DNA of 20,010 nt from Spizellomyces punctatus DAOM BR117 (lineage: Eukaryota), in the NCBI GenBank assembly GCA_000182565.2, contig KQ257471.1. The stretch is one strand, 5' to 3'. Shown in pieces: positions 211 to 17,384 of the stretch; the stretch's first letter is position 1; every line of letters begins with the position of its first letter. The position numbers were made by a program, and so were the translations under genes. The notes beneath the pieces were generated by a model, which was not told where the DNA came from, ran no database searches, and was given only the letters and a program-made list of their open reading frames with translations.

Positions 211-312
211 GCATACCAGCCGGGATTGGCCACTCCGCGCCCGGCATGCCTGCCGGCATCCTCATGTCCGTTCTTCAAATGGACTACATCTGCGCCGGCA
301 TCTTCTGCCGCA
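211..312 (-). repeat. GC-rich palindromic dispersed repeat, composite copy overlapping the integrase stop
   Basis: The minus strand reads ATGCCGGCGCAGATGTAGTCCATTTGAAGAACGGACATGAGGATGCCGGCAGGCATGCCGGGCGCGGAGTGGCCAATCCCGGC, matching 12232-12320 and 12722-12844. Confidence 0.9.
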
Positions 313-1384
313 GAATTTCTATGTGCAAAAATGTACCCTTCGGACGAACTTTTAACTTTTTCTGTTGCAATCTTGTTTTAGTAGGTCGTGTTTGTACAGG
401 CTCCAACTGATGAATTTCTTTGTGAACTTCTTTTTGTGTTCTGGTCAATTTTACTGGTAGATGACCTGGTTTCTCGGTAATCGGTGCATTGGTTTTCTGT
501 AATTCATAGTATTTGAAACGCTGGTCTATTTCTTTACCATTGGCGTATGCTACTACGAATCGATAGCCATCGACATTGACTATATGGTATACTTCATCAG
601 ACCATTTTGCCTCGTATCCTTTTTTGAAAATATCCTGTTTGAGTAATATTCTTACATGGTCGCCAATGTCAAACTTCTTGAAATCACTTACAGCCTTGCT
701 ATTATCGCGTAGATAATCACCATTAGCAACATCGACAGGTGCCTTTTTCAATAGACTGTGATATGAAGTATTGTAGTTCATAACAAGGTCAGGAAGAGCA
801 TCTATGTAGCGCTTAGTTTTAAATACGGTCATGTATCTGGAGATAACACTTTTCAGTGTGCGATTAAACCTTTCGACCAGACCCATATGGTTATGGTCTG
901 CAACTTCAGCCATGTAATGGTTTATACCATACTTATTGAGCAATTGCTCAAAAACAATGTTGTTGTACTCTGAACCCCTATCAGTCGTGATATTTTTAGG
1001 ACGCCGCCTAGCGAGTAACTTTGTAAAACAATCAGCAATCTTTTCTCTGGTTTTATTCTTGAGAGGAAAAACAAAGGCATAACGAGAGTACACGTCTACA
1101 ATACATAACAGATAACGGTAACCATTGTTGTAGGTAGCATATTTCTGCATGTTGCACAAATCCGATTGCCATATGTGATCAACACCATTGGCTGTTATAT
1201 GCATGTAGTTAGGCTTGACAAGAGGTTTGTGTACTTGTTGCACATGCTGACTGTCGATGAATGTCTTTATATCCTTTCTGGAAATACCCTGATCCTTGAG
1301 TCTCTGGTAGAGCTTTTCTATGCTCTGAAGTCCAGTCTTGGGATCATAGTAAACTTTCTTGATTAGTTCGGTTTTTGTCCCCAT
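284..1384 (-). CDS. Retroviral-like (rve) DDE integrase, Polinton c-integrase type
   Basis: Catalytic triad motifs HIWQSDL, ITTDRGSEY and VERFNRTLK; N-terminal YYDPKTG; YNTSYHS; C-terminal FDIGDHVRI...KKGYEAKWSDEVY typical of Polinton integrases. The ORF is intact and its ATG lies 1 nt after the PolB stop. Confidence 0.95.
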   Translation of the reverse strand: MGTKTELIKKVYYDPKTGLQSIEKLYQRLKDQGISRKDIKTFIDSQHVQQVHKPLVKPNYMHITANGVDHIWQSDLCNMQKYATYNNGYRYLLCIVDVYSRYAFVFPLKNKTREKIADCFTKLLARRRPKNITTDRGSEYNNIVFEQLLNKYGINHYMAEVADHNHMGLVERFNRTLKSVISRYMTVFKTKRYIDALPDLVMNYNTSYHSLLKKAPVDVANGDYLRDNSKAVSDFKKFDIGDHVRILLKQDIFKKGYEAKWSDEVYHIVNVDGYRFVVAYANGKEIDQRFKYYELQKTNAPITEKPGHLPVKLTRTQKEVHKEIHQLEPVQTRPTKTRLQQKKLKVRPKGTFLHIEILRQKMPAQM

Positions 1385-1385
1385 T

Positions 1386-4300
1386 TTAAAAACCGAAAGG
1401 AAGTGTCTCTATGACCTTAGACTCAGAGTTAAATTCTTGAACCACACGTTTGTTGTAGACAAACTTGTACTTTTTGCAGGGTGAGTTATTTTTTTCTGGT
1501 ATGATGATCTTTGTCTTGTTACGCACACTGTGTGTTTTACTAATGTTGATTTCGCTAAAGTTAAAATTAACACAACTCTCTTTCTCAATACCTTCATCAT
1601 CAATGTACCTAGGGTTAAATACTATATCCTTCATAGACTCATGTCCAAGATTGAGTCCATTTTCATATGAAAGTGCGAAGCCTTTACAGACCGTCTTTGC
1701 TCTCCCTGTTTTGTTGAGAATGTAAGAGTAATTCTTAGCGCCACCTGAAACAAATTCTACAATATGGTCGCCTTTCAATTCATCTGTCAGGTCTCCAAGA
1801 TAATTACCATAGGGCAAAGTCTTTTCAGTTGATCCTATATCATCATCAACATATATAATAGAATCAGTATCATAGTACAACACCTTTTCCCCTACAGTAT
1901 CCAGAACACTGTAAAGTTTACAACGAGCCAAAGCGGTAGTGTATGCAGCAATGAAAATACTAGTATTCTTGTCATCACGAACAGCAGCCTTATGCAAGGA
2001 GTATGACAGATCCAAAGTGCGACCATTATCATAATCAACAATGTCGTGTATGATATATTTATCATTGAACATGATGGAGTAGTATTCATCAGGATTTTCC
2101 TCAGCATTGATCGTGATATGCTTACGCATGTTGTTCTTTTGACCGAATTTACCCCACAATGAATTGAGCATCAACTTAGCCACGAGATGTAATCCTTCAT
2201 TGTAGACAATTTTGGCTGGATCAAGACGAATACCTTGCTTGCTTTCGTAGTCGTCAATATACTTTTTTCTGTCGTCATCATTTTTACACCATTTAGGGTA
2301 CCCTGATGCTTCCTGCTTGATTTTGAGAAATGTGAAGATGTAATCTTTGAAAAGATCAGATCCCGTATTTTCGAAATGAAGAACCTCATAAACTTGAGAA
2401 ATGACATAGCCCTTTGAAAGCACTAACTTCACTTCTGGAATGCACCAAGTCCCAACAAAAGCCCTCTGTTCAACAGAGTGGCGACAAACAGAGATACCTT
2501 TTTCAGCACAATTCTTACAAAGAACAAACATGGTCTTGTTGTTAATCTTATCAGGAAGTACAGGGTGATATAACCCACGAGGGGGTACTATTCGACACTT
2601 GATGAAACCATTGTAGTTCAGTTGGCCATCAAAGTTGTTAAGAATCCTTGTGGGGAACGAGTAGCATGGGTACTCTCCAAAAGCATTTACCCAAGGATAC
2701 TGTGATGTAAAATCGCAGTATTTCACTCTTTCCTTCTCAGAACATTTGTAGTAAAGTTTGCTGGCATTTGTTCTACCACCAAAAAATGCATTACGAGGAT
2801 CTAGAGGTCGGATATATTCAATGTCGAGGTCTTTACTCATAACATAATCACATATCTTCTTGTTTGAGTCATATTCACACTCTGAGATCGAGACATAATT
2901 GTAACCTAGAGCAATCAATTCTTCATGCTTATTATCGGTATATCATCTCAAAGACTTATAAGGGACACCATGATAATTAACGGCATCATCGTCTTTGCAT
3001 TGTTTACACCCATGGAATTCACAACCATTAAATTCATACACAGTATTTGTCGAAGGAGAATAGCCATCGGCATAGAATTTTTTCCCATTTAATCGGTCAA
3101 TCCATTTCTCTCCACCGCGTAGAACATGTCGCATATCCGGAACGCCATTATCACATAGATATTCGAGCCACTGGACAGCCTTGTCTGAATGACGCCGCAT
3201 TCCTTCTTCATGATGTGTGGGTATGCTTTCTTCAGGCATGAACATATGCCTGTAAGTCCCCATACATGCCGATGCTATGGTTTTATAAGCCCAAGGATCA
3301 ATTTCACCATCGGTTGCTACAAGGAATTGCTCTCGGAACAATTTCACGGCCGCTGCTAGAATATCGACATCATTCTTGCAGTATTCAACAAGTTCCTTAG
3401 TGTAATCAAAAACATACCTACCCTTCATGCATTCGCGTAGGGTTTTCTTGTACCAGCGTCGTGCATCAGCGCGTTTATCATAGGGCATACTGTCGAATCA
3501 AAAATCATCCAAAGATGGTAAAACGCCTTTATAATCATTTGAACATTTGAACCAATGTGGAAAGTAACCCTTACGAACATGTTCCTCTAATCCAAACATG
3601 GAAGGCAACTTTGACAGTCCCATAGGCAAAAACGACATGCTATCAATGAACCGGATGTTGAACTTGGGCAGCACCATTGAAATGATCTTCAACCCATTTG
3701 AGATATACTTAGGCTTAACACCGTTGTCATTGAACTTTTTGAAGAGAAAGTGGAAATCGTAACCCTGACCATTGTGAGCAATGAATGTTGTATTAGGGTT
3801 CTTGAAGATGAATTGATAAAAAGCATCAAATTCAAAGAAGGAGTGATGCTCATGACATTGGCACACAGATTGGCATAGACCGGTACAAACTACCTTGCAA
3901 TCCGTAAACTTTACACAATGTTCACCATCATGTAGAAACTCTGATTCAAAATCAAATGCTATGATCTTGCTAATGTGCTTTCTGGGTTTCTTTTTCTGTA
4001 TGAAGCATCGATGGTCAGGAGTGACGTAAGCCTTGCAAGGATGGCAGAGATAGTGGTTGCAATCGTGTAACTCAGCACAATTACCGTCATAATAAGCACG
4101 CTCAAATACACGCCTGCAGCCACCTTCCTTGTTACATTTCCATATTTTATCGCATTTTTTCTCCTTGTGATAATCATCACAATCTCCTGAAAAGTGACCT
4201 AAGTTACAACTTAAACACAACACTAGATCATCAGGAGATCCTTGTTTACATGTGACCCGACCACAAAGGTTGCATCCTCGTTTCTTATCACATTTATGAT

Positions 4301-5528
4301 TGGTATGCTTGTGTCCTTTCATGCATTGGAAACAAAAATACGATGCACAGTAAAAGGCGTTAATCTTGGTTATGCAATCGAAATGATCCCCTTTACGTAG
4401 GATAGTAGCAGGTTTCTCATCGTATTGCTCGTTGTTAACACCTTTGACCATAAGAGGCTTACCACCGTTCTCTAGATCAACAATAACGATGTTCCTTTTG
4501 AGGAATGAAACCAACTTTGGAAAGTCGCCGTAAGACATCTTCTGACCAACAGGTAACCCGCATCCTTCATAATAGTTAGTAACAATTTTGTCCAGTGGCT
4601 TTCTTTGTTTCATGATGTACGCATATTCATTTGTTGAGTGATCCATCGCATGGAATGCTACGGATAAGGCAACTGCTCTCATACCACAATTGTTACCATT
4701 GTTTTTCACAACAATGACACAACTTTTTGACTGTGCTGATAGATGGTCATGATAGTTTTTGAAGGCGCCGCCCTTTACCGAAACTAAACGATGCACCTCG
4801 ATAGTCATGCTTTCATCGATTGATGCTATTTCAGCCGATTGCATTCTCGCAGTAATTTCATCTATCACATCAGAAGCAATCAGATCACTAACTGATACAA
4901 CTTTTGATGACCAAAATCCATTGTGTAGACTTTGATGTTGAAACCCTATTTGCACTTTGTCACCGCATTCAAGGCCTACAAGTGATTCCTTGATGACATC
5001 ATTGAAAAATGAAACAATATCATCATGAGTAGCGAAGGTGTACTTTGGATTGAACCGATAAAGTTCCTTTGTATAACCGATACCTTTGATTTTGATCTCT
5101 TTGACAGATATTAAAGGTGAGAATGATTCTTGACGCTTTCGAAGATTATACTTACGTTTAGCCCTAGTGGCAGCAGCCTTCTTAGCGGCTTCCTTTCGCT
5201 TTTTAATAGCAGCCTGAGCCCTCTCTTGAATTTCTCTCATCTCGCGCTCTTCCGCTTCTTTATTAAGCCTTCTCGTCACTCTGGCCTTTTCAGCAATAGC
5301 CTGCTTTTGAGCCTCAGTGCGTCTCGCAGCAGCAATTCTTTTTTCTCGCTCAGATTGTAGGAATCTTGGTACTCGATGTATTTGAAGGTTCTCTAGTGCT
5401 TCTCGTCGTTTCTTAGTCCAGTTCTTACGTGAGAAGTTTCCAGAGACGATCTTCCGCATCATCTTCTCGAAAGGCTTCGAGTCTTCTTTTACGTTTCTGT
5501 TTGCGATTGGGTCAAAAATCAAAGGCAT
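1386..5528 (-). pseudogene. polB: Protein-primed family B DNA polymerase (pPolB, ~1380 aa) with two in-frame TGA codons
   Basis: ORFs 3498-5528, 2943-3488 and 1386-2918 share one frame and are separated only by TGA at 3498-3500 (LDDF*FDSM) and 2943-2945 (SLR*YTDN). Motifs: ExoI IAFDFES, ExoII AHNGQGYDF, FIDSMSF, KGYFPH, ExoIII YCKNDV, FFGGRT, DFTSQYP, KLMLNSLWGKFGQ, YYDTDS. Confidence 0.93.
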
Positions 5529-5597
5529 AGTAAATAGAAATATATAGTGTTAAAAAATAAATATTTTCAAAGCTTTAAACGTATTTGTTCTTCGAAT

Positions 5598-5634
5598 GAT
5601 GCCGGGCGCAGAGCGGCCAATCCCGGCAGGGATG
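5598..5634 (+). repeat. GC-rich palindromic dispersed repeat, intergenic copy
   Basis: GATGCCGGGCGCAGAGCGGCCAATCCCGGCAGGGATG, immediately 3' of the 5636-5950 gene. Confidence 0.9.
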
Positions 5635-5635
5635 T

Positions 5636-5950
5636 TCATGCAAAGTGAGCAACTTTTACTGGATCATCAGGAATAGCCACTTTTCGATTTATTTTAAAGT
5701 ATCTCATCTTAGGAGGAGGTGGTGGTGGTTTTCGTATACATGGTAACTTTTCTATAGCATACATCTTTGAAATAGGCGATTCTGCTAACCCATGTATTAT
5801 ATTATGAATGTATGAGCGCGAGACACCTAACCTGTTAGCAATCTCTATGGCTGCCCGATAGTCATTTACAAATGTTCTAGAACCATCTTCTTCGATCTTG
5901 TATACCCTGTAGCGATCCTTCGTGTTTATCGATCCTGATTTGCATCCCAT
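5636..5950 (-). CDS. Small putative DNA-binding protein, NUMOD1/HTH-like
   Basis: The segment FVNDYRAAIEIANRLGVSRSYIHNIIHG matches a NUMOD1-type helix-turn-helix pattern. It has a proline-rich basic tail and an AT-rich upstream region. Confidence 0.6.
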   Translation of the reverse strand: MGCKSGSINTKDRYRVYKIEEDGSRTFVNDYRAAIEIANRLGVSRSYIHNIIHGLAESPISKMYAIEKLPCIRKPPPPPPKMRYFKINRKVAIPDDPVKVAHFA

Positions 5951-6212
5951 GTTAAAATATATTGTGTATACAAAATATTATTTCTCTTTGTTTAAACGTG
6001 TGTGTTTATTAGCAAATGTTGTACAAAAGCTCTATAACAACGCCCCTACATGACGCTAAACAAAGGGATATCTATGTACATTGTGCTATGAAACACCTTT
6101 ACAGACTGTTTTTGTCGTTTTGTATTTTTTTTTTTCTGGTTTTGTTGTTTTGTAATTTTTTTTTGTTGATTTCATGGATTTTTTAGCATGTGTCAACGGT
6201 AATTGAAGAGAA

Positions 6213-6812
6213 TCAAGCAGCGGCACTACTGCTTCCTACATCTGGAGGATTGATAACATCAGCATGGACAATGTCCTGATCGCTCACTTTAGCCTTGACG
6301 CTCTTTCTGTGCTTAGGAGTGCTAGCTGCTATGAGTGCGTTAATCTGCATCTGTTGCTGCTCGATACGCTCCATGAGCATTTGCTCTAAATTAGCAGATT
6401 CCCCATCACGCTCAGGGCTTGACCGCTCGACACGTCTACGTTTACCCTTTTTGTGGTTGTAATCGCTGTCATCGGCATCATCGGAATCGTCGTCAGAACC
6501 AGAACTCAAGGTTTCACCATCAGACTCGAAATCTTTGAACTTTCTCTTTAACTTGAGAGATGAAGATTTCCATTTATCCTCTTCTCGCTCCTTCCGCTCT
6601 AGGAGTCGTCCCAGATGACCTTGAAGTGATTCTAGCAACTCCTTGTCTTCCTTATATATCTTCTGATTATCAGCCATATTTTCTAATAAACACTCACTTT
6701 GCTCGAAGGTGAGATCCTCTAGACCCATCTTGAGAGCACGACGCACTATGGGATGTAGCAAGCCTCCTACAAAGTGCGTCACTTGCCCCCATTGACTCTT
6801 TGCAATGGACAT
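6213..6812 (-). CDS. Hypothetical protein with acidic tract, NLS-like basic patches and a short coiled coil
   Basis: 199-aa ATG ORF on the same strand as its neighbours, containing SSGSDDDSDDADDSD, KKGKRRR and LMERIEQQQMQINAL. Confidence 0.65.
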   Translation of the reverse strand: MSIAKSQWGQVTHFVGGLLHPIVRRALKMGLEDLTFEQSECLLENMADNQKIYKEDKELLESLQGHLGRLLERKEREEDKWKSSSLKLKRKFKDFESDGETLSSGSDDDSDDADDSDYNHKKGKRRRVERSSPERDGESANLEQMLMERIEQQQMQINALIAASTPKHRKSVKAKVSDQDIVHADVINPPDVGSSSAAA

Positions 6813-6957
6813 GTTTCAAATTCGGTTAGGTGTTTCAGAAAATGTAGCTATGTTTCAGATTCGGTTAGATGTTTCAGAATTATGGCGCGTGTTTCAGAAC
6901 ACGTATCTGATGTTTCAGATTCGGTTAAATGTTTCGAATCATACCTGATGTTTCAAA
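6812..6957. repeat. Phased array of 8 TGTTTC(A/G)(G/A)A motifs, 19-21 bp apart
   Basis: Motif starts at 6812, 6831, 6851, 6870, 6890, 6911, 6930 and 6949. The spacer TTCGGTTA recurs three times. Confidence 0.9.
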
Positions 6958-7056
6958 CCCGTACTCATGCTAATGGGAGAAAAGATACACCGAGTGCCTT
7001 TTTATGCCACCGGCTTGTACTCAGGGATGCCCTTCCGTTCAATGGAAAGAATCTTG

Positions 7057-7082
7057 GCATCCCTGCAGGGATGCGCCGGCAT
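7057..7082. repeat. Perfect 18-bp palindrome built from the repeat terminus
   Basis: GCATCCCTGCAGGGATGC (7057-7074) followed by GCCGGCAT. CAGGGATGC is the 3' end of the repeat family. Confidence 0.75.
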
Positions 7083-7109
7083 AGTCTTGGCATTTCTTGG
7101 CGCCATTTT

Positions 7110-7283
7110 TTAAACATAAACAACACGCCTCACGACTCTTCCAGAACCGTAGCGTCACTTACGTGTTGCTGCGGCTTTTCTAGCAGCGATGATGCGCCTG
7201 TTTCTTGCACGAGCAGCCGCTCTAAGTCCTTTATTCGGCATGGCCGATACGTTGATGAGTTTTCTATGGGATTTCTTAGCCAT
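7110..7283 (-). pseudogene. Small Arg/Lys/Ala-rich basic protein (putative DNA-condensing core protein), one in-frame TGA
   Basis: Manual translation: MAKKSHRKLINVSAMPNKGLRAAARARNRRIIAARKAAATRK*RYGSGRVVRRVVYV-TAA, with TGA at 7155-7157. It lies directly downstream of the MCP gene and is absent from the ORF track. Confidence 0.7.
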
Positions 7284-7342
7284 AATGTGATTCAATATTA
7301 GGGTGTCCTATACATATGTGAAGAATATAATTGTTCGCATTA

Positions 7343-8689
7343 CTAAGCCGGAACCAATCTAATACCATCTTTGTTGATGCTCATCACATGATCAGTAGTC
7401 CAAAATACATGAAATGTCTTGTCCTTGAATGTAGGAATGCCGGCGAAATCGGCTGTTTCCGGAGGATTTGGATATTGAGAGACATTGATTAGAATGCGCC
7501 CATCGGCTAGAGTCTGAAGACCACCACCAATCATGTCGGGGGTTTGCTTGAAATTCTGCCTCCACGACCAATGTTTTATCTTTTTTCCTCCTAGATCCCA
7601 TCCTTCCAAATCAGACATAGTGGGCGCAAACTTGACATCGTTAAAGTCCTTGTTCCTTTGTGAAAGAGCATACATCTCTGGGTCTATAGTAGAGACAACT
7701 CCTGTTTTCTCAGAGCCATGTGCAATAGCCTTCCCTTGTGGGAACCGTTCCATTCCTACTTGGATAGAAATGGTTCTAATACCTGCATCGTCCGAATAAT
7801 TCAATTTGTCTACATCAGTCCTTAAATTGTCAGTTGTCACCAACATCAATGACGAAACAGAGGACTGTTCACCTGTTACAAGCGAGAGTTGTTGTACTCG
7901 ACTATCTTGTCCTGCAAACTCTTGACTCCACACTATTTGCATGGGGATAGTCAGGGGTGTAGGATCCTCAGCCTGCATCAAAGCAAGCACTTTATCATAG
8001 TATTCCTTGACCAGTTCAGCAAACTGACAAATCAGTTCATTTTGTTCAATCCTGAAATATTTGATTATTCCGGATGTGGGAAAAATTTTCGTGAGTTCAG
8101 TCTCAGCAGTCATTTCAAGGGTTACTCCTCCTTTTACAAGACATAGAGGAAAAGCCACTTCATTTTGAAAGAATGACAGCGATGAGCCGGTGACAGTGTA
8201 AGCCCTGTTTGTAGCAACCACTGCTGAACGGTCATTATCCTCACTCGAATAATACTTGCATTGGCCAAGATGTTGTTTGGTTTCCCACGATGTTAGAGCG
8301 TTTTCATGCACCGTAAAAAGGTTGTAGTCATTGAGATCTTCAATGATCCTTCCATTGATCAGAATAGATTGCCGTTTCCATACAGCATCTGTTCCTGATT
8401 GACATAGCCTGTGGGTTGCAGTGGCAGAAACAACTTCTTTGTAATCATCATCAAGCCCTACTAGTCTATATTTGTGCAATGTTTCATTAACGAGCCAGAA
8501 ACGCTTGTCATCTGCTATTTTAAAAACTAGTTTCCTGCCTGCTCGACAGTCCCCACTTCCGTTTGTTGGCTCGAAGCGAACCTGACTAGATGGCTGGAAG
8601 TTTAGAATGACTCCGTTTTTTGTGGATCGTTTATAAGTAAATGCCGATGGGACACGTCTGACCTCTGTTACTTCAATATCGGATGACAT
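7343..8689 (-). CDS. Major capsid protein, double jelly-roll, PLV type
   Basis: 448 aa and beta-rich. The N-terminal pattern RFEPTNG...RKLVFKI...AVWKRQSILINGRIIEDLNDYN resembles PLV MCPs. It is adjacent to the packaging ATPase and the ORF is intact. Confidence 0.8.
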   Translation of the reverse strand: MSSDIEVTEVRRVPSAFTYKRSTKNGVILNFQPSSQVRFEPTNGSGDCRAGRKLVFKIADDKRFWLVNETLHKYRLVGLDDDYKEVVSATATHRLCQSGTDAVWKRQSILINGRIIEDLNDYNLFTVHENALTSWETKQHLGQCKYYSSEDNDRSAVVATNRAYTVTGSSLSFFQNEVAFPLCLVKGGVTLEMTAETELTKIFPTSGIIKYFRIEQNELICQFAELVKEYYDKVLALMQAEDPTPLTIPMQIVWSQEFAGQDSRVQQLSLVTGEQSSVSSLMLVTTDNLRTDVDKLNYSDDAGIRTISIQVGMERFPQGKAIAHGSEKTGVVSTIDPEMYALSQRNKDFNDVKFAPTMSDLEGWDLGGKKIKHWSWRQNFKQTPDMIGGGLQTLADGRILINVSQYPNPPETADFAGIPTFKDKTFHVFWTTDHVMSINKDGIRLVPA

Positions 8690-8848
8690 GGTTTACTTTA
8701 CACATCTAGAAAAAAAAAACGTCATTTTTTAAGCAAAAGTGACATCAAAAATTGTGCCTTTCGGAAAGGAGTTTGCTGTCCTAAATAGCCTGAACTCAGT
8801 CGGTGTAGCTTAACAAGTTACAATGGTTGTCAAAGCGAGGGGGTCAAA

Positions 8849-8867
8849 GGGGGACAGCCTGTCCCCC
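8849..8867. terminator. GC-rich hairpin at the 3' end of the ATPase gene
   Basis: GGGGGACA-GCC-TGTCCCCC is a perfect 8-bp stem overlapping the TAG at 8867-8869. The function is inferred from position only. Confidence 0.4.
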
Positions 8868-9538
8868 TACGAAAAACCAACTCTAAAAGGTCATTTCGAA
8901 CTTTGTAGATTTATGTGCACAAAATGAAATGGTTTCTTTGTATTAACCATAACGAACTTTTCAAATACATCTTCAGGTAAAGCGAGAGATAAGCCTGCTT
9001 CGACCATTTTCTTAAGTTCGCTTTTCAAAGGTCTAAAAATGATCCAGTTTGTTGCATTGCTACGTACAGCGGGACTATTGTGATAAAAATATTGACTCGA
9101 CAGGATGCAAGTGATACCGGCATGCCTTCCACGTGTTGCCAACTCATCGAGTGACTTCTTATGTCCCTTTTGCATGTTGTAGTCATCTATGATTAGAAGC
9201 AGGTCTCGTTTTCTTCCACTTCGAACAAATTCATAAAGTTGCTCTTCGTGTATAAAATTGAGTATTTCATTGGAAATCTTGTCAAATATATGAACCTTTT
9301 TGCTCGTTCTTAAGGGGTTCCAATTGGTGTCATGCGGATTTGGTGTGAATATTATGATATTCGAATACTGCTTCTTCAAGAACAATTTGCATATCACAGC
9401 AATGTTTAGCGTTTTACCGCTAAATCGAGCACCATTGTATATGATAAAACCATACTTTCTAGGAAGCCGTGGATCTGTATTATCCTTTATGCGTCCAGAG
9501 ACTTGACTAGGTAAAGGGGCAATTGTGATTGGCTTCAT
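8867..9538 (-). CDS. A32/FtsK-HerA family genome-packaging ATPase (in-frame TGA 8 codons before the probable original stop)
   Basis: Walker A GARFSGKT, Walker B LLIIDD, RGRH arginine finger, SSQY, VRSN. Probable start MKPITI at 9538 (alternative ATG 9577). TGA at 8891-8893 is followed in frame by PFRVGFS-TAG, which resembles the usual C-terminal FRxxF ending. Confidence 0.92.
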
Positions 9539-9585
9539 TGCACTTGTTTTTATTTGCTCTCTGTATCTATAATACATTAGAAGAA

Positions 9586-10329
9586 ATGAAAAAGTTGATT
9601 CTCGATAGCAACAGGGCGACGAACGGAAACAAGAATGAACCTAAATGGACTCTAGCCGAACCCATCACATGTGATAAAATTTGATACAATTCGATCATTT
9701 TGCCCCTTTCGTGGGACATAGTAAATGACAAGAACAATATTGTCTCCTTTTATGATGCTGGGATGGGTAATGCTGCAAAGACTTTTGCTATTCCTCCTGG
9801 GACATATAGCCCTGATGATTTGGTCGATGCACTGACTGCTGGATTTAACTCGACTGGGACGCAAGCATACACCGTAGAATACAATCATATAAACAATCAA
9901 ATCACAGTGACCGCGGGTACAACACCATTCAAAGTTCTCTACCCTCAAACCACAGCAAGCAAACTGCTCGGATTAGTTCAGACGCAGCAATCTGACCCTG
10001 GGAGATCAATAACTTTTGCGAATCCAATCGATTTGACAGGTGTTAAGATGGTGCTCGTCTCATCATCAAACTTACGTTCTAATGATGTTGTAGTTGCTGG
10101 AGCCGATGATCTGAATATTCTAGCATCGATTCCAATAAGCCAGGAAATAGACACCGTGCTGTGTGCGCAGAATTATTTCGATACCGACTTCATTGACACG
10201 GAGTCAGGCCTTGTTAGTACCATCGACATCCGTTTGCTTGATGCTGAAACGCTATTGCCGATTGATTTACAGGGCAAAGGGTTCACTTTGGTTCTTGATT
10301 GTCATTCCTCCGGCTTTGCAGATGATTAA
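9586..10329 (+). pseudogene. Minor capsid protein (penton, single jelly-roll), one in-frame TGA
   Basis: ATG 9586 reads MKKLILDSNRATNG...LAEPITCDKI*YNSIILPLSWDIVNDKNN, in frame with ORF 9700-10329; TGA at 9682-9684. Motifs LDS, IPPGTY, KLLG, ILASIP and IDIRLLD...IDLQG are typical of PLV/Polinton pentons. Confidence 0.82.
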
Positions 10330-10356
10330 TTTTTTTTCATTTGGAACATGTAAAAG

Positions 10357-10674
10357 ATGTTGCGTCAAAAATTCGCAAACTTTCTCTCAAGTGCAAAGAA
10401 CTTTGGTCTTCGAGCATTGAACAGTTACAGCAAAGTAAACAATGGAATTCGACAATTTGTAAACCATGCTGGCCAAGCCAGAGATATTTATGGAAAGGTT
10501 CATCAATCTCTAGTCCATGACGAATCTGTACCCATCAAAGTAAGAGAGACAATTTCACGAGGATGAGGTTATATCAATGATCTCCATAAAGGTCTAGGGC
10601 GATCCTATGAGATCCAACAGAATTTTGATTCAGCGCTAAGGAAATTGCTTCCTGTCGAATTAGCGGGGTATTAA
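10357..10674 (+). pseudogene. Hypothetical 105-aa basic, amphipathic protein, one in-frame TGA
   Basis: ORF 10357-10566 continues in frame past TGA 10564-10566 (ISRG*GYINDLHKGLGRSYEIQQNFDSALRKLLPVELAGY) to TAA 10672-10674. Confidence 0.6.
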
Positions 10675-10688
10675 TGCTACTTTTAGCG

Positions 10689-10967
10689 TCAAATGATTTC
10701 ATTCAAGTCATCAATGTAAAGAGGATTTTCAGGAATAATAACATACTCGTTCCAGTTAATACCACTCACATCAGCGTCTGGAATGATGGTTTCCTTACTG
10801 TATATATTCATCATGCCTGAGCCCGGCATTGGCACTCCGAGTTCATTCGCAGAGTGAATGAACGAGTCAGAATCGTCTTTGACGGTTCCTCCGCGCCCAG
10901 CATGCCTTTCAGCCAACTTCCTCCTCAAACGCTCTTGTATCCGTTCCTTCCTTTGTTGAGACAACAT
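10689..10967 (-). CDS. Hypothetical protein
   Basis: Probable start MLSQQRKERIQERLRRKL at 10967, downstream of an AT-rich divergent spacer (10968-11017). It ends TGA-CGC-TAA and contains two degenerate copies of the GC-rich repeat. Confidence 0.55.
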   Translation of the reverse strand: MLSQQRKERIQERLRRKLAERHAGRGGTVKDDSDSFIHSANELGVPMPGSGMMNIYSKETIIPDADVSGINWNEYVIIPENPLYIDDLNEII

Positions 10968-11017
10968 GCTTCTTTTTTTTAATAATACTAATATAGTAAA
11001 ATACAGAATAGAACGAT

Positions 11018-12037
11018 ATGTATGTTGCCGAATTGGTAAAACTATTACAGAAGGGCAACACTGATGTAACTGATTACAACTCTGAGCAGGTCGAACATGA
11101 TGTGTTTTGGAGAGAGAAGAGAAAATGGGTTGATTCAAAGTTACCTACAGGCTATTTCAAGCACCCGCTGTTAAACAAGTATCGTTCATTTGGTAAGGTT
11201 GATACACAATTCGTCAGTGACCCATACTATATTGAAATTGATAATAGACGCTTCGGTGAACTAAGGGATGCTAACGGCCGGTCTTTGGATCCTGATACCT
11301 TTCAGCCAGTTGTTTCAGATGCAGAACTCAAACGGATGGCTTCCAGGCATTCAGTTGATTACCGTCCCAAATCTAATCAAGAGACTCGGTATCCGATAAT
11401 CCATGGTCGCGATGGATACAAAAATGACATAGATTTGAATGCACGCATCAGACAAATGCGCGAAGGTTATGAGAATTTTATACAAAAGGAGAGGGCTATA
11501 GAAAGAGAAAGACGTGAGAACATTGCTAACATACAGCGTTTCCGCTCTTCACATGGTATTCACAATCCTGGGGAGAGTTTGCTAGAAACAACTGGCTTAG
11601 GAACGCGGGGCACAGACATTTCTGCCTCAAGAGACTCATTCAATGTACAACGTGGACGACCTACTCCTGCGTTGTCTGAGAACATCTTTTATGAGGAAGG
11701 AGGCACGCCACCTACACAATGGGTTCTACATAGGCGATCTGATTCAGATCTTGAAAGGGGTATAATGACACCATTACCTTTATCACCAACCTCAGGCTTA
11801 CCATCACTAGCGCCGATGGATGACTCACCATCTCCGTCTCCATCTAGAACAAGGCAGCCCACGCCTAAACAACTATTCAAAAGTATTCTAAAGAGGAACC
11901 CTCGAGGCGGTTTCATGCATCCTGTTATACCGGGCAAAAATATGCCCGAGAGATTGCCTGAATTTAGACAAATGGTCAAAGCATTTAAAGACAATAATAA
12001 TCGACCATTGTCAACTTGGACGAATATCAAACTATAG
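11018..12037 (+). CDS. Hypothetical protein (339 aa; coiled coil and Pro/Ser-rich region)
   Basis: Long ATG ORF after an AT-rich spacer. No family was recognised. Confidence 0.7.
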   Translation: MYVAELVKLLQKGNTDVTDYNSEQVEHDVFWREKRKWVDSKLPTGYFKHPLLNKYRSFGKVDTQFVSDPYYIEIDNRRFGELRDANGRSLDPDTFQPVVSDAELKRMASRHSVDYRPKSNQETRYPIIHGRDGYKNDIDLNARIRQMREGYENFIQKERAIERERRENIANIQRFRSSHGIHNPGESLLETTGLGTRGTDISASRDSFNVQRGRPTPALSENIFYEEGGTPPTQWVLHRRSDSDLERGIMTPLPLSPTSGLPSLAPMDDSPSPSPSRTRQPTPKQLFKSILKRNPRGGFMHPVIPGKNMPERLPEFRQMVKAFKDNNNRPLSTWTNIKL

Positions 12038-12078
12038 CGCTGAAGTATGTTTTTTTATTTTCTATTTACAAAGCTAAA

Positions 12079-12888
12079 ATGCCTAAAAAAAAGGAATCTA
12101 TACCGGCGCAGAGCCAAATGCCGGCAGGCATACCTGACCAGGACATTACAGATGAAGAACAAAGTTTGAATGATGATGATGAAACTAATGACGATGATCA
12201 TCAAGACTATGTTCAAGAACTTGTAAACAAATATGCCGGCGCAGAGCCAAATGCCGGCAGGCATGCCGGGCGCGGAGTGGCCAATCCCGGCAGGGATGCC
12301 GATCCAGGCAGGGATACCGGAGAGGTCAATACCAGCGCTCCCAAAAAACGTACTGCATCAGAGAAGCAGCGAGCACATTTAGAAAAAAGCCGAGAAAAGG
12401 CTCTTCAGGTTAGACGAGAACTTGCCGCCAAGAGAAAAGAAGAGAGAGAACTAGAAAAGAAGAGAAAAGAGGATGAACGGATTCTTGCTAAGGCCGAAGC
12501 CCTTAGAGTGGAACAGGAAAAATGTGTCGAGGCTAGGCTCCGCAACTATATGAAGGACTTACAAAGTCACAAGACTAAAGCGAAGCGAATTAAAACGCCA
12601 ATACCGAAAAAAAGACGGCAGATTGTAGTTGAGGAATCATCAGATGATTCTTCAGATGATGATGATTATCAGGTTGTTAAAGTCATCAAGAGAAAGAGAA
12701 CTCGCCCTGTTCATCCCACTCGCGCAGATGTAGTCCGTTTTAAAAATGGACATGAGTATGTCGGGCACGCAGAACCATATCCCAGTGCAGAGCCATATGC
12801 CGGCAGGCATGCCGGGCACGGAGTGGCCAATCCCGGCAGGGATATCATGCGTACCAAACCACCATCGATCTTTGATGACATTGTATAG
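12079..12888 (+). CDS. Hypothetical charged coiled-coil protein carrying in-frame palindromic repeat insertions
   Basis: Probable start MPKKK at 12079 (AAAATG context). It contains KRTASEKQRAHLEKSREKA, a K/E/R coiled coil, an acidic SSDDSSDDDD tract and three repeat-derived segments. Confidence 0.72.
   Translation: MPKKKESIPAQSQMPAGIPDQDITDEEQSLNDDDETNDDDHQDYVQELVNKYAGAEPNAGRHAGRGVANPGRDADPGRDTGEVNTSAPKKRTASEKQRAHLEKSREKALQVRRELAAKRKEERELEKKRKEDERILAKAEALRVEQEKCVEARLRNYMKDLQSHKTKAKRIKTPIPKKRRQIVVEESSDDSSDDDDYQVVKVIKRKRTRPVHPTRADVVRFKNGHEYVGHAEPYPSAEPYAGRHAGHGVANPGRDIMRTKPPSIFDDIV
12232..12320 (+). repeat. GC-rich palindromic dispersed repeat, in-frame intragenic copy
   Basis: TATGCCGGCGCAGAGCCAAATGCCGGCAGGCATGCCGGGCGCGGAGTGGCCAATCCCGGCAGGGATGCC; a shorter copy lies at 12100-12134. 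Confidence 0.9.
12722..12844 (+). repeat. GC-rich palindromic dispersed repeat, composite in-frame intragenic copy
   Basis: GCGCAGATGTAGTCCGTTTTAAAAATGGACATGAG...GCAGAGCCATATGCCGGCAGGCATGCCGGGCACGGAGTGGCCAATCCCGGCAGGGAT. Confidence 0.9.
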
Positions 12889-15168
12889 ACCAAATGTCGG
12901 CATGCAATTCATTTTCTAAGCTATGATGATATAAAGGAATAAGAAGATGCCTTTGCCTAATAGCATTCAAGGCACATATACGGTTCGAAGAAATTTAGAA
13001 GTCCTAGATAATTTCAAGTCCGGAAAAGTTAAAGCCAATTCTATCTATGGAGAGAGCCTACGGAATAAAGATGGTATAGTCACTATACTCGATTTGGATA
13101 GTCAAATGCCTAGTCTCTCCATTCAGAAAAATAAAGGTAAATATACCATCTCTCTTGCCGAGACAACTTATGTTTTTCCATTAATTGATGATGAACATGA
13201 TGTCAGGCTTGTAACAGACGATACTCTGCTTATAACAGAAGACGGCTTATCTGTTAAACCAGAGACACTCCTGCAACCTCTCTATAGGGCTCCCGACTCA
13301 CGAACAGTAAGCCTAAACATTGATGATGATGAACTAAAAGTTGAGGATGGAAAATTAACAGTCATACCTTATAACTATGATTTCCCACTCTACAGGGAGG
13401 CCGAATCACATACGGTTGGTTTACAAGCAGATGATAGTTTGCTTATAACTGAAAACGGTCTATCGGTTAATTTTCCTGATCCTGAGACGCTGAAAAAGCC
13501 GTTGTATCGTGACCAGAGCGGCCTTGGAATCAAACTTCATAAAAGTCTAAAGGTGAACAATAATGACGAATTGGAAACTAACATTCAGTCGGTACTAAAA
13601 GCATTTGGCGCTCTGAAATCGAGTTCAGGTGCTGATACGCTGTTAGACATCGGGTCTTCATGGCTCGACTTTGGATTCGATAGTTTGACCGAAATGACTG
13701 ATGTGTTAGGAGAAGTAGACACCACAGCCATTCGCCTAATGGTAGATAGTACCTCATTCAGCCAAGCGGGTTCGAGATTGTCCCTGAAATCACCCGGATA
13801 TGAACAAATCATGTATGGTAACCTTACTTATGGCTACTCGGGAAGTTCTTCATTCACCTATTCGTCCACGCTTCAGGAGTTGCGTGTACCCAATGTAAAG
13901 TTAAGCGGAACATTGCCTGCGATTGGAGGTGGCTCGTATGCTGTAAGTAAAGACTATCTTTCGCAATTTTATCAAGGCTCTCAAACTGGAGCGATCGCCG
14001 TGAGTCCGGAGGCTGCTGGACGTCGAGAGATAGGCTGTTTGGTCGATAATCAGACCATCAGAATTGTTGGAAATGCACTCACAGGTGGTACATTTTTCAG
14101 GACTTTAATGGCGTATCTATTCGACCTGGAACGACCAATGATGTGGTATTATCTCTTAAATGTGAGGCTGGCAGTTGTCTCCAAATGGTCAAAGCAGATA
14201 CCATTAAAGACGTACTGACTTGCAGCAATGGTATCGAGAGAGTACAGAATGACCTTCAACTCGATCTAAAAGTTGATGCTAACAGCGGTTTGGCTATGGT
14301 CAACAGGGGTACCATACGGGATATCTTTACAGCCTCCCAAGGGGTAAGCAGGGTGGGCAACGAGTTCAGGTTATCTCTTACTGCACAGTCACCCGATCTG
14401 ACTCTAAACAATGGTGTTCTGAGTTCAAACATCGCTGCGGGAATTGGACTGCAAAAAAATGGTGCGATTTTGTCAACGAACCTAAGAGGTATCAATGGAG
14501 TGCAAGTTAGCGGCAATTTGATTTCATGTTCACTTACAGGAAGTGATACCGTCCTTCGAGTAGGGGATACTCTGAAAGGTAATTATGTGGGCAGTACCAA
14601 CTCATATGGAAGTGTGGTCGTTGTTGGTAATACCATTCAGTACAACATGATTCCTCCACAATTTGTGTCTAATTCACCAAATCTCATCATTACAGGTTCG
14701 TACCCACTCTACAACTTTACACTCATTGACCCTATGCCATTATCGAAACAAAGGGATACCGATAATACTGAACAGAGTGATACCGCAGAAGTGTTGAAAA
14801 CTGATGTTCCTGGTGGGAATGTGGTCGTATTGTCCGGGGCTACACCACTGACTACCATTCCATTTCCTGTGATGGTATCTCCACCACTGACAATTCCGAT
14901 GGCTGTCAATAGTATTCTGCCCATCGTCTCAACCTTTCCTTGGGGGATGATTTTCGGAGGGTCACGCAAACGTAAGGTTCAACGAGATGCGGAAGGCCAA
15001 CCTATACTCGATGGAGATGGAAACCCTGTTTACAAACCAATCGACCCTGTTACATTCATGCCTCCATTGGAGCCAGGAAGCAATGTAGCAATTGCAAGTG
15101 ACCCTGTAGGTGGCTGCACTCGTCTCTTGTTTGATACGCCTTCATGCTATCGCACCATCAAATACGAA

Positions 15169-15329
15169 TACCCGCAGCAAGCAATCAATCTCTCAATGTT
15201 AAGAGATTATGATACCAAGTTGATCAAGCCTTGGGTGACAAGCCTGATAATGGCATTACCCGCAGCAAGCAATCAATCTCTCAATGTTAAGAGATTATGA
15301 CACCGAAGTTATCAAACCTTGGGTGACAA
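15169..15329 (+). repeat. Direct duplication, 73-nt unit, 88-nt period
   Basis: 15169-15241 versus 15257-15329: the first 44 nt are identical (TACCCGCAGCAAGCAATCAATCTCTCAATGTTAAGAGATTATGA), the remainder is diverged, and the period causes a frameshift. Confidence 0.92.
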
Positions 15330-16784
15330 CAGGATTAGCATCGAAGCAAAACTTATCTCCTTTGCTTGACAATATCAGTAGTCTGACCCCAGCCGATGGC
15401 ACTTTTTTGATGGGTGGAAATGGTGGTTTTTTCCAGATTGTACCTAAAGATGAAATCCTCAGCGCATATCAGCCGTTGATTACACCAGCGAGTGTCCTTA
15501 ACCTTAGCGGTTTAACGGTACAGAATTCAAATACCAATGCTATGGCAATCACACTAGGAAACACTAGCGCTGCACAGACATGGAATATCCATGTGGCTGG
15601 TTCATCGAATGGAAACCTAATTTCTGGAGCATTAGGCTTTTACTCGTCATACCAAGATAAAGGATACGTATTCCGAATTGACCCATCAGGTAATACGGTC
15701 GTGAGTGGAGGCCTTGGAGTTTCGACCGATGCCTACGTTGGCGGAATGCTCTATATTGCTGGCATTGAAGCCGCAACTCAGAAATTCGTAATTGACAATA
15801 TTGCACCGATTACTCAGTCATTATCTTCATTGACAACGACAGTTACTAACAACAATAATGCCGTTACTACTGCACTCGCATCGAAGCAGCCTATGAACGC
15901 TACAACTAATAGCCTGTACACGATGACGGTGCAGCCTGACTCTTGGTTGTATTCTTCTGCTGGGACTACGATCGAAAATGTGACTTCCAATCAAGTTAAA
16001 GGTATCCTCGATATTGCAACAAATGCTGGTGTGAACACACTGCTTTCTGGGAAACAGAACAACATCACTACATCAACTAATCTGAGTCTTGCTTCTGTTA
16101 CTGCAAATGGTTATTTGAGTGTTCAAAATGCTGCCAATCCCACCTTTATGTCACTGGTAAATACAGCATCAAATGTGACATGGGGACTTCGAGTCGCTGG
16201 TTCTTCAGCCGATGGCTCTAACCCAGCAGGTGGGTTTGGAATCAACTGTTCATATAACAACGTAGGCTATGTGTTCAAGATTTCTAATACAGGTATTACA
16301 CAGATAACAAATACCTCACAGTCAACCAGTTCGACTACAGGAGCACTTCTAGTAAGTGGTGGTTTAGGTGTTGCAAAGGACGTATATGCAGGAGGAAATG
16401 TAATTAGTAGCACCTCTGTGGATGCTCCAAACTGGGTGCAATCTAGAAACATTTCGTCTGGCACTAATGCCTACGCGGCCATTGGTTGTGCCAATGATAG
16501 CGGCAATGGTGCGTTACTTTTCCTCAACTCTTCTACAAGGACTGCTGATGGCTCGTCGAATAACGCTACTCTCCGCAACGACTGCGGGGACATGAACATC
16601 CAAGGAAAATCAGGTCTCGGATTGGGTCTACGGATTGTATCCATTTCAAATGAAGTGAAAGTCTTGACCACTACAGACTCCTCATCTGCAACAACAGGGG
16701 CTTTACAGGTATCTGGGGGTGTTGGAATTGCTAAAAAACTTTGGGTAGGGACAGGATTATATTGCAACAGTCTATATTTGCCGG

Positions 16785-17384
16785 TGTAACGGATTTTTTG
16801 TTGGTAGACTACAGTAAAGACAACTTGGGTCTCCTAGCAGGTTGTGTGGGTGTCCGTACTAGGAATCGTAGTCTCCAAATCCTTTCTTTGGGCGTCGGTA
16901 GCGACTTGAGGGCGAGAGGCAAGGAGAGTCGGTTAGTTGTGAACCGAGCAGGATTTAGAGGCTTCGGTACGGGTGATCAGGCCGTTGAAGCGCTCTGTTA
17001 GGTTCCTGTTAACCTAAGATTGGAGTTGAGAAGCGAGTTATGGGGATTTTTTGTCGCTACGGCTTCTGCCCCCGACTTATTTTATTGAATACATCCTTTT
17101 TATACAAGATTCTTGGATAAACTGTTAAACTAAACTAAACTAATGGGTGTCGCTGCACCGCAACTGATTTATTGGTGGCGGTACCGATCTCTTCCTTTTC
17201 CGCACTGGCTCGGGCCTCCACAGGTTGTACGAGGCACGCTGAAATCTAATGCGCCAATTGCCATTCTCCGAACCGGTTTTTTCGGTCGCGGTAACCCAAT
17301 CGGTGGAGTTGGTCACGCGATTCGTGCTTCCCGCGTCCGATTTGGGCTTACTCGCGATCTCTCGAAGACGTCCTCGTCGTTACA
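16785..17384 (-). mobile_element. Solo LTR of an LTR retrotransposon (600 bp, 4-bp TSD)
   Basis: Termini TGTAACG...CGTTACA (7-bp inverted repeat, TG..CA), with CCGG duplicated at 16781-16784 and 17385-17388. Removal restores the fibre frame (YLP-ATSNGFFLQ). On the minus strand TATAAAAA (17097-17104) is followed by AATAAA (17081-17086). Confidence 0.9.

Follow-up and report, generated by a model that had tools for sequence, protein, structure and literature searches.

Are the short GC-rich palindromes that recur through an endogenous Polinton-like ("MELD") virus of the chytrid fungus Spizellomyces punctatus DAOM BR117 pieces of DNA that spread as such, signals that act at the ends of genes, or repeats of a peptide? 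The stretch analysed here (20,010 nucleotides of contig KQ257471.1, assembly GCA_000182565.2; hereafter the window) is such a virus, and a sequence-only reading of it had pointed to a family of hairpin modules with common ends and three kinds of interior (A, B and C), placed singly or concatenated, between genes and inside them. In our judgement there is about an even chance that these modules are lineage-specific, selfish or neutral palindromic repeats, maintained at the level of DNA and gained, lost and shuffled by template switching or ectopic recombination.

A family of palindromic repeats at seven loci

The family of GC-rich palindromic modules with shared ends was recovered by pattern counts, a profile search and a repeat search alike, in agreement with the sequence-only reading. 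In total, seven full units and at least four partial ones, with the shared ends ATGCCGG(S)...(S)CCGGCAGGSAT, were detected on both strands, as solo units and as arrays, at seven loci between positions 213 and 12843; family sequence was present at all eight places that had been listed beforehand. The 14-nucleotide (nt) terminal hairpin pattern AT[GC]CC[GT]GC[AT]GG[CGT]AT was found 10 times on the two strands against 0 in each of 200 first-order Markov shuffles. For ATGCCGG[GC] the count was 13, the shuffles averaging 0.5 and never exceeding 3. By nhmmer search with a unit profile, the seven full units scored 24.7-36.7 bits, the top score of 20 shuffles being 7.7 bits. They comprise four C units, 213-247 (minus strand), 5599-5633, 12263-12297 and 12809-12843, and three A units, 12100-12131, 12233-12264 and 12779-12810. 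Among the partial units, 12758-12783 (11.1 bits) and 246-259 (8.3 bits) exceeded the shuffle maximum, 10813-10839 (7.7 bits) equalled it and 7059-7082 (5.9 bits) fell under it. No unit was found to the right of 12843 by pattern and profile search of the window.

The repeat search gave the paired arms 210-259 and 12251-12300 (50 nt, 96%), 213-259 and 12797-12843 (47 nt, 94%), 253-295 and 12722-12764 (43 nt, 86%), and 212-247 and 5599-5634 (36 nt, 89%). The long matches do not extend past the units: the similarity ends at the unit borders, and the flanks are unrelated. The modules had been said to stand out from an AT-rich genome; they are indeed GC-rich (57-76% GC), but the window, at 41.7% GC, is only moderately AT-rich. 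The seven loci are listed below (ORF, open reading frame; HTH, helix-turn-helix; pPolB, protein-primed family B DNA polymerase).

213-301, minus strand: left cluster, made up of a B unit (246-301), which has the 14-nt hairpin ATGCCGGCAGGCAT at its end, and a following C unit (213-247)
5599-5633, plus strand: solo C unit (33.7 bits, both stems perfect) in the 107-nt gap between the stop of an HTH-like ORF and the start of pPolB
7059-7082, minus strand: truncated unit (5.9 bits), the 5' arm ATGCCGGCGC joined to the perfect 14-nt palindrome ATCCCTGCAGGGAT
10813-10903, minus strand: diverged C-type unit within ORF 10683-10967 (7.7 bits; folding z -2.33)
12100-12131, plus strand: solo A unit (28.6 bits), codons 8-17 of ORF 12079, read IPAQSQMPAG
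12233-12315, plus strand: array of an A unit (12233-12264, 29.8 bits), a C unit (12263-12297, 36.7 bits) and a degenerate 18-nt unit (12295-12315)
12722-12843, plus strand: array in the C-terminal part of ORF 12079: first a B-type unit, next a rearranged remnant of C and A (12756-12790), last the A unit 12779-12810 and the C unit 12809-12843

At the left cluster, the last residues and the TAG stop codon (284-286) of the integrase are supplied by module B, the interior of which carries a GTCC..GGAC hairpin. The outer stem pairs at 7 of 7 positions in this B unit and at 6 of 7 in the C unit (35.6 bits), and the cluster, 87 nt long, is followed by ATGCC. At 7059, 9-nt direct repeats TCTTGGCAT flank the unit at 7052-7060 and 7085-7093 with a 33-nt period. 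The segments 10813-10839 and 10889-10907 are two halves of one diverged unit, the latter being 19 nt long and 95% identical to the A/C junction. This unit is split after GGAG by about 54 nt that hold an 8-bp hairpin (GTTCATTC/GAATGAAC), with GGAG on both sides, and a loss of 1 nt shifts the reading frame inside it. At 12100, ATACC forms the first five letters of the unit and also the five letters that follow it. The 12233-12315 array (81 nt, no stop in six frames) is read in the other frame of ORF 12079 as YAGAEPNAGRHAGRGVANPGRDADPGRD, and the 12722-12843 array (120 nt) scores 24.7, 35.5 and 11.1 bits.

Around the left cluster, an inverted repeat of 14 nt (153-166 and 294-307, 86%; CAGAAGATG...) was observed, and AGATGTAG occurs 4 times against 0.5 expected. 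In one contig, 19999 is linked to position 311 of the opposite strand; a different copy departs from the window sequence to the left of 159. The left cluster may lie inside a terminal inverted repeat, the partner of which would be located beyond the right end of the window. Separately, the stretch 7432-7446 near the 3' end of ORF 7343-8689 looks unit-like (ATGCCGGCG...CCGGAGGAT) and scores 1.4 bits with the profile, which is noise level; contigs of sister copies are 5 or 13 letters shorter at this point. In the ATPase gene (9117 region), the 11-mer AGGCATGCCGG was put down to chance, about 3 such matches being expected by our own estimate.

Architecture of the unit

The unit is 30-56 nt long, begins with A-TGCCGGS and finishes with SCCGGCA-GGSAT. 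The outer stem of 7 bp, TGCCGGS/SCCGGCA, is perfect in five of eight full units (three C, one A and one B) and pairs at six of seven positions in two others. The final 14 nt form a second, overlapping hairpin, ATSCC-GGCA-GGSAT, all five pairs of which are kept in seven of the eight full units and in the truncated 7059 unit. Loop length depends on the type, A having 12 nt, C 15 nt and B 36 nt; the B loop has its own stem, GTCCRTT/AAYGGAC, with one transition in that stem in each of the two B copies.

The hairpin character that had been assigned to the modules is borne out in kind rather than in strength, the stems being real but modest (7 bp, weak energies). DNA folding of 10 stretches gave z values of -1.18 to -2.33 against shuffles. 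Covariation is represented by compensatory changes between A and C at the innermost pair of the outer stem (C:G versus G:C) and at the third pair of the inner hairpin; because there is one event per helix, these changes are suggestive only.

Neighbouring units share an AT overlap, giving periods of 12, 18, 30, 33 and 54 nt. The cluster length is a multiple of three in five of the seven clusters (87, 33, 30, 81 and 120 nt), the other two being 22 nt (7059) and 89 nt (10813-10903, one base under 90). Counting the CT spacer in front of it, the 7059 cluster measures 24 nt, and the 33-nt period of its direct repeats (9 nt each) follows from that length. No stop codon is present in any of the six frames of the A and C units, and B contains stops in two forward frames.

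Conservation as DNA, inside and outside proteins

The sequence-only reading had held that module A is read in two frames of a single ORF and that its conservation must be at the DNA level, and both statements are upheld. By translation, unit A of ORF 12079 yields IPAQSQMPAG at 12100 and YAGAEPNAGR at 12233, and the diverged unit in ORF 10683 is by itself read in two frames. Non-coding family sequence is present in the 5599 unit and in bases 213-283 past the integrase stop, and copies lie on both strands. Between the mid and the C-terminal A+C blocks of ORF 12079 there are five differences, none of which is silent: four are at codon positions 1 or 2, and the fifth is in a codon also altered at position 1. 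Judged from these comparisons, the units are conserved and propagated as DNA, not as peptides.

In-frame module peptides are found in ORF 12079 (three places), in ORF 10683 and at the integrase C-terminus, the end point of which is the same as in the homologues. The claim that modules are tolerated inside proteins rests on the intact paralogous ORFs in which they stand in frame, since the window copy, which is decaying (see below), is insufficient by itself. The structure of the ORF 12079 protein was modelled by AlphaFold from an alignment of 7 sequences (mean predicted local distance difference test score, pLDDT, 59.6). The model shows a conserved central helix at residues 95-167 (pLDDT >90), and the stretches with pLDDT <50 (residues 6-14, 16-37, 55-85, 216-221 and 223-255) contain most of the module residues (8-17, 52-79 and 215-255). 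In this one folded protein the modules fall in predicted disordered segments.

Variation among sister copies and paralogues

The protein of ORF 12079, found as P0001 in the search on a contig of 321,667 bases, was aligned with its homologues P0002-P0007; the nearest relatives are the uncharacterised S. punctatus DAOM BR117 proteins SPPG_09293, SPPG_09453 and SPPG_03313. Differences other than a 63-nt skip seen in DNA rest on annotated protein models. DNA contigs, one each of X1 and X2 (one sample), skip 12251-12313, that is 63 nt, with 2 letters shared at the joint and the letters between the two sides undefined. The mid place of P0002 reads YAGAEPNTGEVN / KYAGAEPNTGEVN, exactly the window minus 12251-12313. 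At the same place P0003 reads KYAGPGAANPGRDAGAEPNTGEVN, with 11 additional residues (one 33-nt C unit) located before the A-left part, not after it.

The C-terminal arrays likewise differ by whole units (3 to 5), being B-A-C-A-C-A in P0002, B-C-A-C in P0003 and B-C'/A'-A-C in the window, and a loose end of X1 at 12779 agrees with the C-terminal form of P0002 and P0003. In another copy, 10804-10900 is exchanged for 79 different letters. At the 12100 unit the window has isoleucine on both sides (I...I) and P0002 has methionine (M...M), so that ATG stands at both flanks in P0002. The more distant homologues P0004-P0007 are without units, and the core residues 94-154 are conserved in all. In ORF 12079 the modules are thus not fixed at orthologous positions, as close paralogues differ there by entire units and distant homologues are free of them. 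The alignment of homologues, which had been proposed as a way to find empty sites with target-site duplications, gave presence and absence unit by unit, but duplications of uniform length were not seen. P0004 carries repeats of its own, GALGRS / GALERS among them, at N-terminal, middle and C-terminal places matching those of the modules in the window lineage.

Searches for copies in the host and elsewhere

Against a genome-wide host repeat stands the absence of any depth spike at the module bins in the DNA run X16, which bears the same species label. The depth per first-mate strand was 7.67/7.42 in bin 1-667, 5.91/6.11 in 5337-6003, 6.93/7.16 in 12007-12673 and 6.43/6.93 in 12674-13340, as compared with 3.1-10.1 in other bins of the element and 138/144 in bin 16676-17342, which holds a true high-copy insert. 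Since the module bins are covered much like other parts of the element, the modules do not behave as a host repeat of high copy number, and a common host miniature inverted-repeat transposable element (MITE) or satellite was rejected on this basis; with reads of 38 nt the bound is weak, ruling out hundreds of copies, not tens.

A 43-residue module peptide matched only P0001-P0003 (3 of 4 candidates; 5.8 billion proteins), and the only match of the 31-residue peptide of the other frame, among 1.84 billion representatives, was an unrelated repeat protein of 2721 residues named glucanase. A bacterial or phage repeat was rejected as well, the exact DNA matches being at chance level. An 18-mer of unit C was found in one IMG/VR contig (63% GC), within an HNH-like ORF, and a 21-mer in one prokaryotic contig in 596 billion bases, with no second unit nearby; both matches sit in ORFs encoding PIPAGM. 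An exact scan of JGI metagenomes with the 29-nt degenerate C unit gave 0 matches, and the integrase alignment found no relatives in IMG/VR. The ORF 12079 alignment gave one remote IMG/VR locus and four remote metagenome loci (31-71% identity over 24-80 residues), with 0 family motifs in all five.

In the available portions of the literature on Spizellomyces Polintons/Mavericks and on palindromic GC-rich repeats in Polintons, supplementary tables lying outside the scope, no such units are described. The words 'palindrom' and 'hairpin' occur 0 times in the accessible text of PMC8502044, and 'palindrom' 0 times in that of a 2026 preprint.

Origin of the units

For selfish or neutral repeats of the kind set out at the beginning, the following course may be proposed. 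A polymerase or repair intermediate would switch template at the shared ATGCCGG or GGSAT-ATGCC junctions, and units would be gained, lost and shuffled. Hairpins folding in the single strands displaced by protein-primed replication would favour the switching, which in tandem arrays would lead to unequal exchange and slippage; occasionally a unit might be copied by templating into a distant AT(G/A)CC site. Selection would then keep the harmless copies, of 3n length and mostly free of stops, at gene ends, in intergenic gaps and in disordered segments. The observed placement at gene ends and in disordered segments fits survival only where insertions are harmless. AT, a part of the unit, follows all seven clusters and AT[GA]CC follows four; the lengths of the flanking direct repeats vary, which favours microhomology at switch points over a fixed staggered cut. 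We infer both the template-switching mechanism and the selfish or neutral status.

The analogy with mobile palindromes drawn in the sequence-only reading is apt in form, the units being short GC-rich palindromes found solo and in arrays, shuffled and read as in-frame peptides; its implication of transposition is not borne out, in view of the variable repeats, the lack of an evident enzyme and two loci that resemble coding minisatellites. The bolder statement, that a Polinton-like virus carries self-propagating palindromic mini-elements, spread by hairpin-promoted template switching or by the integrase and writing peptides in several frames, is tentative and is held well short of an even chance.

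Several observations weigh against selfish or neutral repeats. The gene-end placement of five of the seven clusters would also suit a signal at gene ends. The flanking direct repeats are of 2, 3, 5 and 9 nt, and no filled and empty pair with a uniform target-site duplication was seen at the DNA level. Two loci are head-to-tail arrays in one frame, like an ordinary coding minisatellite, and hairpin energies are only 1.2-2.3 standard deviations better than those of shuffles. The depth argument leaves room for tens of host copies. All the variation comes from three close paralogues of one gene and one replaced segment (10804-10900); within it, the differences of P0003 and of the C-terminal arrays are taken from protein models, in which an intron call could mimic a gap. 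Finally, P0004 (SPPG_03313) repeats another peptide, APPQRGGA (twice), at its mid and C-terminal places, a hint that the protein, or these places, want a repeat.

The best placed of the alternatives, though unlikely, is that the hairpins are cis signals at gene ends or in regulatory regions (transcript 3' ends, or operator or CCAAT-type sites for a factor of the virus or the host), palindromic so as to serve either strand, the copies within ORFs being explained by the compactness of the genome. In Mimivirus, hairpins mark transcript 3' ends just past the stop of most genes. Here, five of the seven clusters are located within 75 nt of a stop codon (15 stops scored), as matched by 25 of 20,000 random placements; the threshold of 75 nt was set after seeing the data. 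The integrase stop is inside the left cluster, the 5599 unit is 2-4 nt from the stop of the HTH-like ORF (5636-5638, minus strand), the 7059 unit lies 74 nt past the stop of a 42-residue basic ORF, and the 12100 unit 64 nt past the stop of ORF 11018-12037. From the end of the 12722-12843 array it is 45 nt to the stop of the ORF that contains it and about 100 nt to the next start. The 14-nt ATSCC-N4-GGSAT resembles the sites of dimeric binders, and the C units hold GGCCAAT, which at 5599 is about 90 nt upstream of the pPolB start codon (5528). In contrast, just five of the 15 scored stops are near a cluster, genes to the right of 12900 have none, and the clusters 12233-12315 and 10813-10903 are located 123-197 nt from any stop. 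The number of units at one place varies from 0 to 5 among close paralogues, and distant homologues have none, which is unexpected for a required signal.

Next in order, and also improbable, is a coding minisatellite in the disordered arms of the ORF 12079 protein, copies elsewhere being accidental patches of gene conversion or repair. Four of the seven full units and most partial ones are indeed in ORF 12079, all unit lengths are multiples of three, the arrays are head-to-tail with a copy number that differs among paralogues, and the mid and C-terminal places of P0004 hold a peptide repeat of their own. The peptide KYAGA, encoded in the window by the 5' arm ATGCCGGCGCA, is kept with little or no change in all 7 homologues, module-free ones included, so that the 5' arm at KYAGA is possibly an ancestral coding sequence. 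A peptide repeat does not, however, account for the same DNA being read in two frames of ORF 12079, for the absence of amino-acid-preserving changes among the five substitutions between A+C blocks, or for family sequence at four other loci (two of them non-coding) on both strands with similarity ending at the unit borders; the compensatory stem change is needless for it.

The least probable of the three, and quite doubtful, is a reading of the units as genuine miniature transposons, which an enzyme such as the rve integrase or a host nuclease would cut and paste or copy, recognising the TG...CA stem and duplicating AT(G/A)CC. The inverted ends 5'-TGCCGGS...SCCGGCA-3' start with TG and end with CA, AT[GA]CC stands after four of the seven clusters, ATACC is found on both sides at 12100 (methionine, ATG, on both sides in P0002), a 9-nt direct repeat surrounds the 7059 unit, and an rve integrase is encoded next door; but the duplicated stretch ranges from 2 to 9 nt, overlaps the unit consensus and is maybe part of the unit, no excision footprints were seen, and no element with matching long ends was found within the window, the right end of the virus being outside it. 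Known MITEs are longer than the units of 30-35 nt.

The virus that carries the repeats

The window was identified as a Polinton-like virus from its gene content, the hallmarks being a protein-primed family B polymerase, an rve integrase and an A32-type ATPase. Among 18 ORFs screened against Pfam, five were matched (three above the curated cut-off) and 13 were not. The ORFs are as follows.

284-1384, minus strand: rve integrase (Pfam PF00665, E 1e-17)
1386-5528, minus strand: pPolB, 1380 codons with two in-frame TGA (PF03175 DNA_pol_B_2, E 3.1e-42; 145.5 bits, cut-off 25.8)
5636-5950, minus strand: small HTH-like ORF (match under the Pfam cut-off)
6213-6812, minus strand: acidic ORF
7155-7283, minus strand: highly basic ORF of 42 residues (MAKKSHRKLINVS...RKAAATRK), between the capsid-sized and acidic ORFs
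7343-8689, minus strand: ORF of 448 residues, putative capsid protein by size and position only
8891-9577, minus strand: A32-like packaging ATPase (PF04665 Pox_A32, E 2.5e-6; 27.6 bits, over the curated cut-off of 22.8)
9586-10329, plus strand: penton-sized ORF, named by size and position only
10357-10674, plus strand: small ORF
10683-10967, minus strand: small ORF
11018-12037, plus strand: ORF 11018
12079-12888, plus strand: ORF 12079, a protein of 269 residues that hosts three module clusters
12947 onward: long fibre-like ORFs

The best homologue of the integrase among the matches listed (the best 120 of 156 proteins at E <= 1e-20) was 'integrase [Powellomyces chytrid fungus MELD virus 1]', with 59% identity. 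For ORFs 7343-8689 and 9586-10329 there was no Pfam match and no relative in IMG/VR or phage records. According to the available portions of the two articles, S. punctatus carries an integrated Polinton-like virus (PMC7805220), and Powellomyces MELD viruses have adenovirus-fibre-like genes (PMC8502044). Raw DNA reads from a run with the same species label span the whole window; for the majority the likeness is 99% or more, and for many it is 90-99%, indicating that several diverged copies of the virus exist.

Some further features of the window were noted. The basic ORF 7155-7283 (minus strand) may encode a core or DNA-condensing protein. A repeat of 30-39 nt (consensus ATGTTTCAGATTCGGTTAGATGTTTCAGAA) occurs three times at 6804-6939, amounting to five TGTTTCAGA-like words; the copies are in the intergenic stretch starting with the start codon of ORF 6213-6812 (minus strand) and may serve as a promoter or for binding. 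Another repeat, T-rich and 30 nt long, is located at 6106-6165. No known RNA family (Rfam) and no tRNA was found in the window.

Decay of the window copy

The copy of the virus in the window is decaying. Four in-frame TGA codons were detected, two in pPolB (2940-2942 and 3495-3497, minus strand), one in the penton-sized ORF (9683-9685, plus strand) and one in ORF 10357 (10564-10566, plus strand), and no in-frame TAA or TAG was found in the ORFs of the window. The observed/expected ratio of CpG is 0.74-0.81, TpG and CpA are in excess at 1.17-1.40, and 39 CGA codons are left. In the part of PMC12695648 available, 5-methylcytosine of Spizellomyces is reported to be restricted to transposons. Recoding of TGA as tryptophan was rejected, the nearest paralogues being S. 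punctatus gene models in the standard code. The TGA codons fit better as a probable CGA-to-TGA decay of a methylated provirus: such deamination would explain stops that are TGA only, given the CpG depletion and a methylation confined to transposons.

In the fibre-like region, the window copy is missing one G after 14086, as compared with the contigs of other copies, and this causes a frameshift; at 15169-15329 it carries an 88-nt tandem duplication, without which the contigs of sister copies are found. By frame arithmetic, either the extra G after 14086 or the absence of the duplication would rejoin the fibre-like frames, and both repairs would yield a single ORF of about 1250 codons over 12947-16789. 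The provirus is nearly silent: in the RNA run X15, 28 of 30 bins did not exceed a depth of 0.43 per strand.

The 600 nt at 16785-17384 behave as a high-copy, highly transcribed host repeat inside the provirus, which interrupts the fibre-like gene region. The DNA depth there is 138-144 against about 5 elsewhere, and the RNA depth is 184/176. Three runs have loose read ends exactly at 16785 and 17384, and loose ends of poly-T are found at 17045/17047. The CpG observed/expected ratio of this repeat is 1.22, unlike that of the virus, and it has no Rfam match and no tRNA.

Comparison with known systems and significance

Mobile palindromic GC clusters that are tolerated by genes are known from organelles and a few bacteria. 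The clusters of yeast mitochondrial DNA (GC42) share with the units of the window a length of 30-50 nt, a GC-rich palindromic nature in AT-richer DNA, solo and tandem arrangement, merger and shuffling, and a presence that changes between closely related genomes. In yeast the clusters lie in mitochondrial DNA, mostly between genes, and duplicate AG, whereas the units of the window are in a nuclear-integrated virus, often within ORFs, with AT(G/A)CC after them. The units lie in a provirus with a single-digit DNA depth per strand on the 321,667-base contig, not in a mitochondrion, and their flanks are AT, ATG, ATGCC, ATACC or the 9-nt repeat, not AG. The likeness is one of form, and relatedness in sequence is not expected. 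Single and tandem clusters, merger and shuffling, and the AG target duplication are described in the consulted portion of PMC4478555 and, by its title, in Weiller et al. 1989.

The units also invite comparison with bacterial and fungal elements and with ordinary repeats. Rickettsia palindromic elements are about 100-150 bp long, lie in frame within genes, the proteins surviving, and in non-coding DNA, and are mostly old and fixed. The units of the window resemble them in adding peptide segments in frame within ORFs and in occurring outside genes; they differ in being 30-56 nt long, in residing in a eukaryotic virus rather than in bacteria, and in varying between close copies. Double-hairpin elements of the mitochondria of Allomyces and zoosporic fungi were reportedly treated by Paquin, Laforest and Lang in 2000, their mobility reportedly being inferred from presence and absence. 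These too are small GC-rich elements of early-diverging fungi with two hairpins, as the window units have two overlapping ones, but they are mitochondrial, and the comparison is by description only. From location and target, and for the Rickettsia elements also from size, the units resemble but do not belong to these three groups.

As in coding minisatellites, two loci are head-to-tail with units of 30 and 33 nt and a paralogue-dependent copy number; in contrast to them, units are also found at five other loci, on both strands, in non-coding DNA and in two frames. The terminal inverted repeats of MITEs have a counterpart in the units, though a very short one (7 bp), and instead of a fixed-length target-site duplication there are repeats of 2, 3, 5 or 9 nt overlapping the consensus. 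With chytrid Polinton-like or MELD viruses the element shares pPolB, the rve integrase, the A32 ATPase and fibre-like ORFs, whereas palindromic mini-repeats are absent from the available portions of the published descriptions.

Unrecognised repeats of this kind will distort gene models and phylogenies of chytrid Polinton-like viruses: repeats write about 78 of the 269 residues of the ORF 12079 protein (between a quarter and a third), and the stop codon of the integrase comes from one of them. A virus with the same behaviour as the mobile palindromes of organelles and bacteria would be a compact and tractable system, with about 20 kb, several diverged copies, a genetically transformable fungus as host and protein priming. 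Should the units prove to act as signals at gene ends or as binding sites, this virus group would have its first defined cis elements. If they are self-propagating elements, they would be a source of rapid protein novelty in Polinton-like viruses, a marker of the most recently replicated sister proviruses, and a viral counterpart to the GC clusters of mitochondria and the palindromic elements of Rickettsia.

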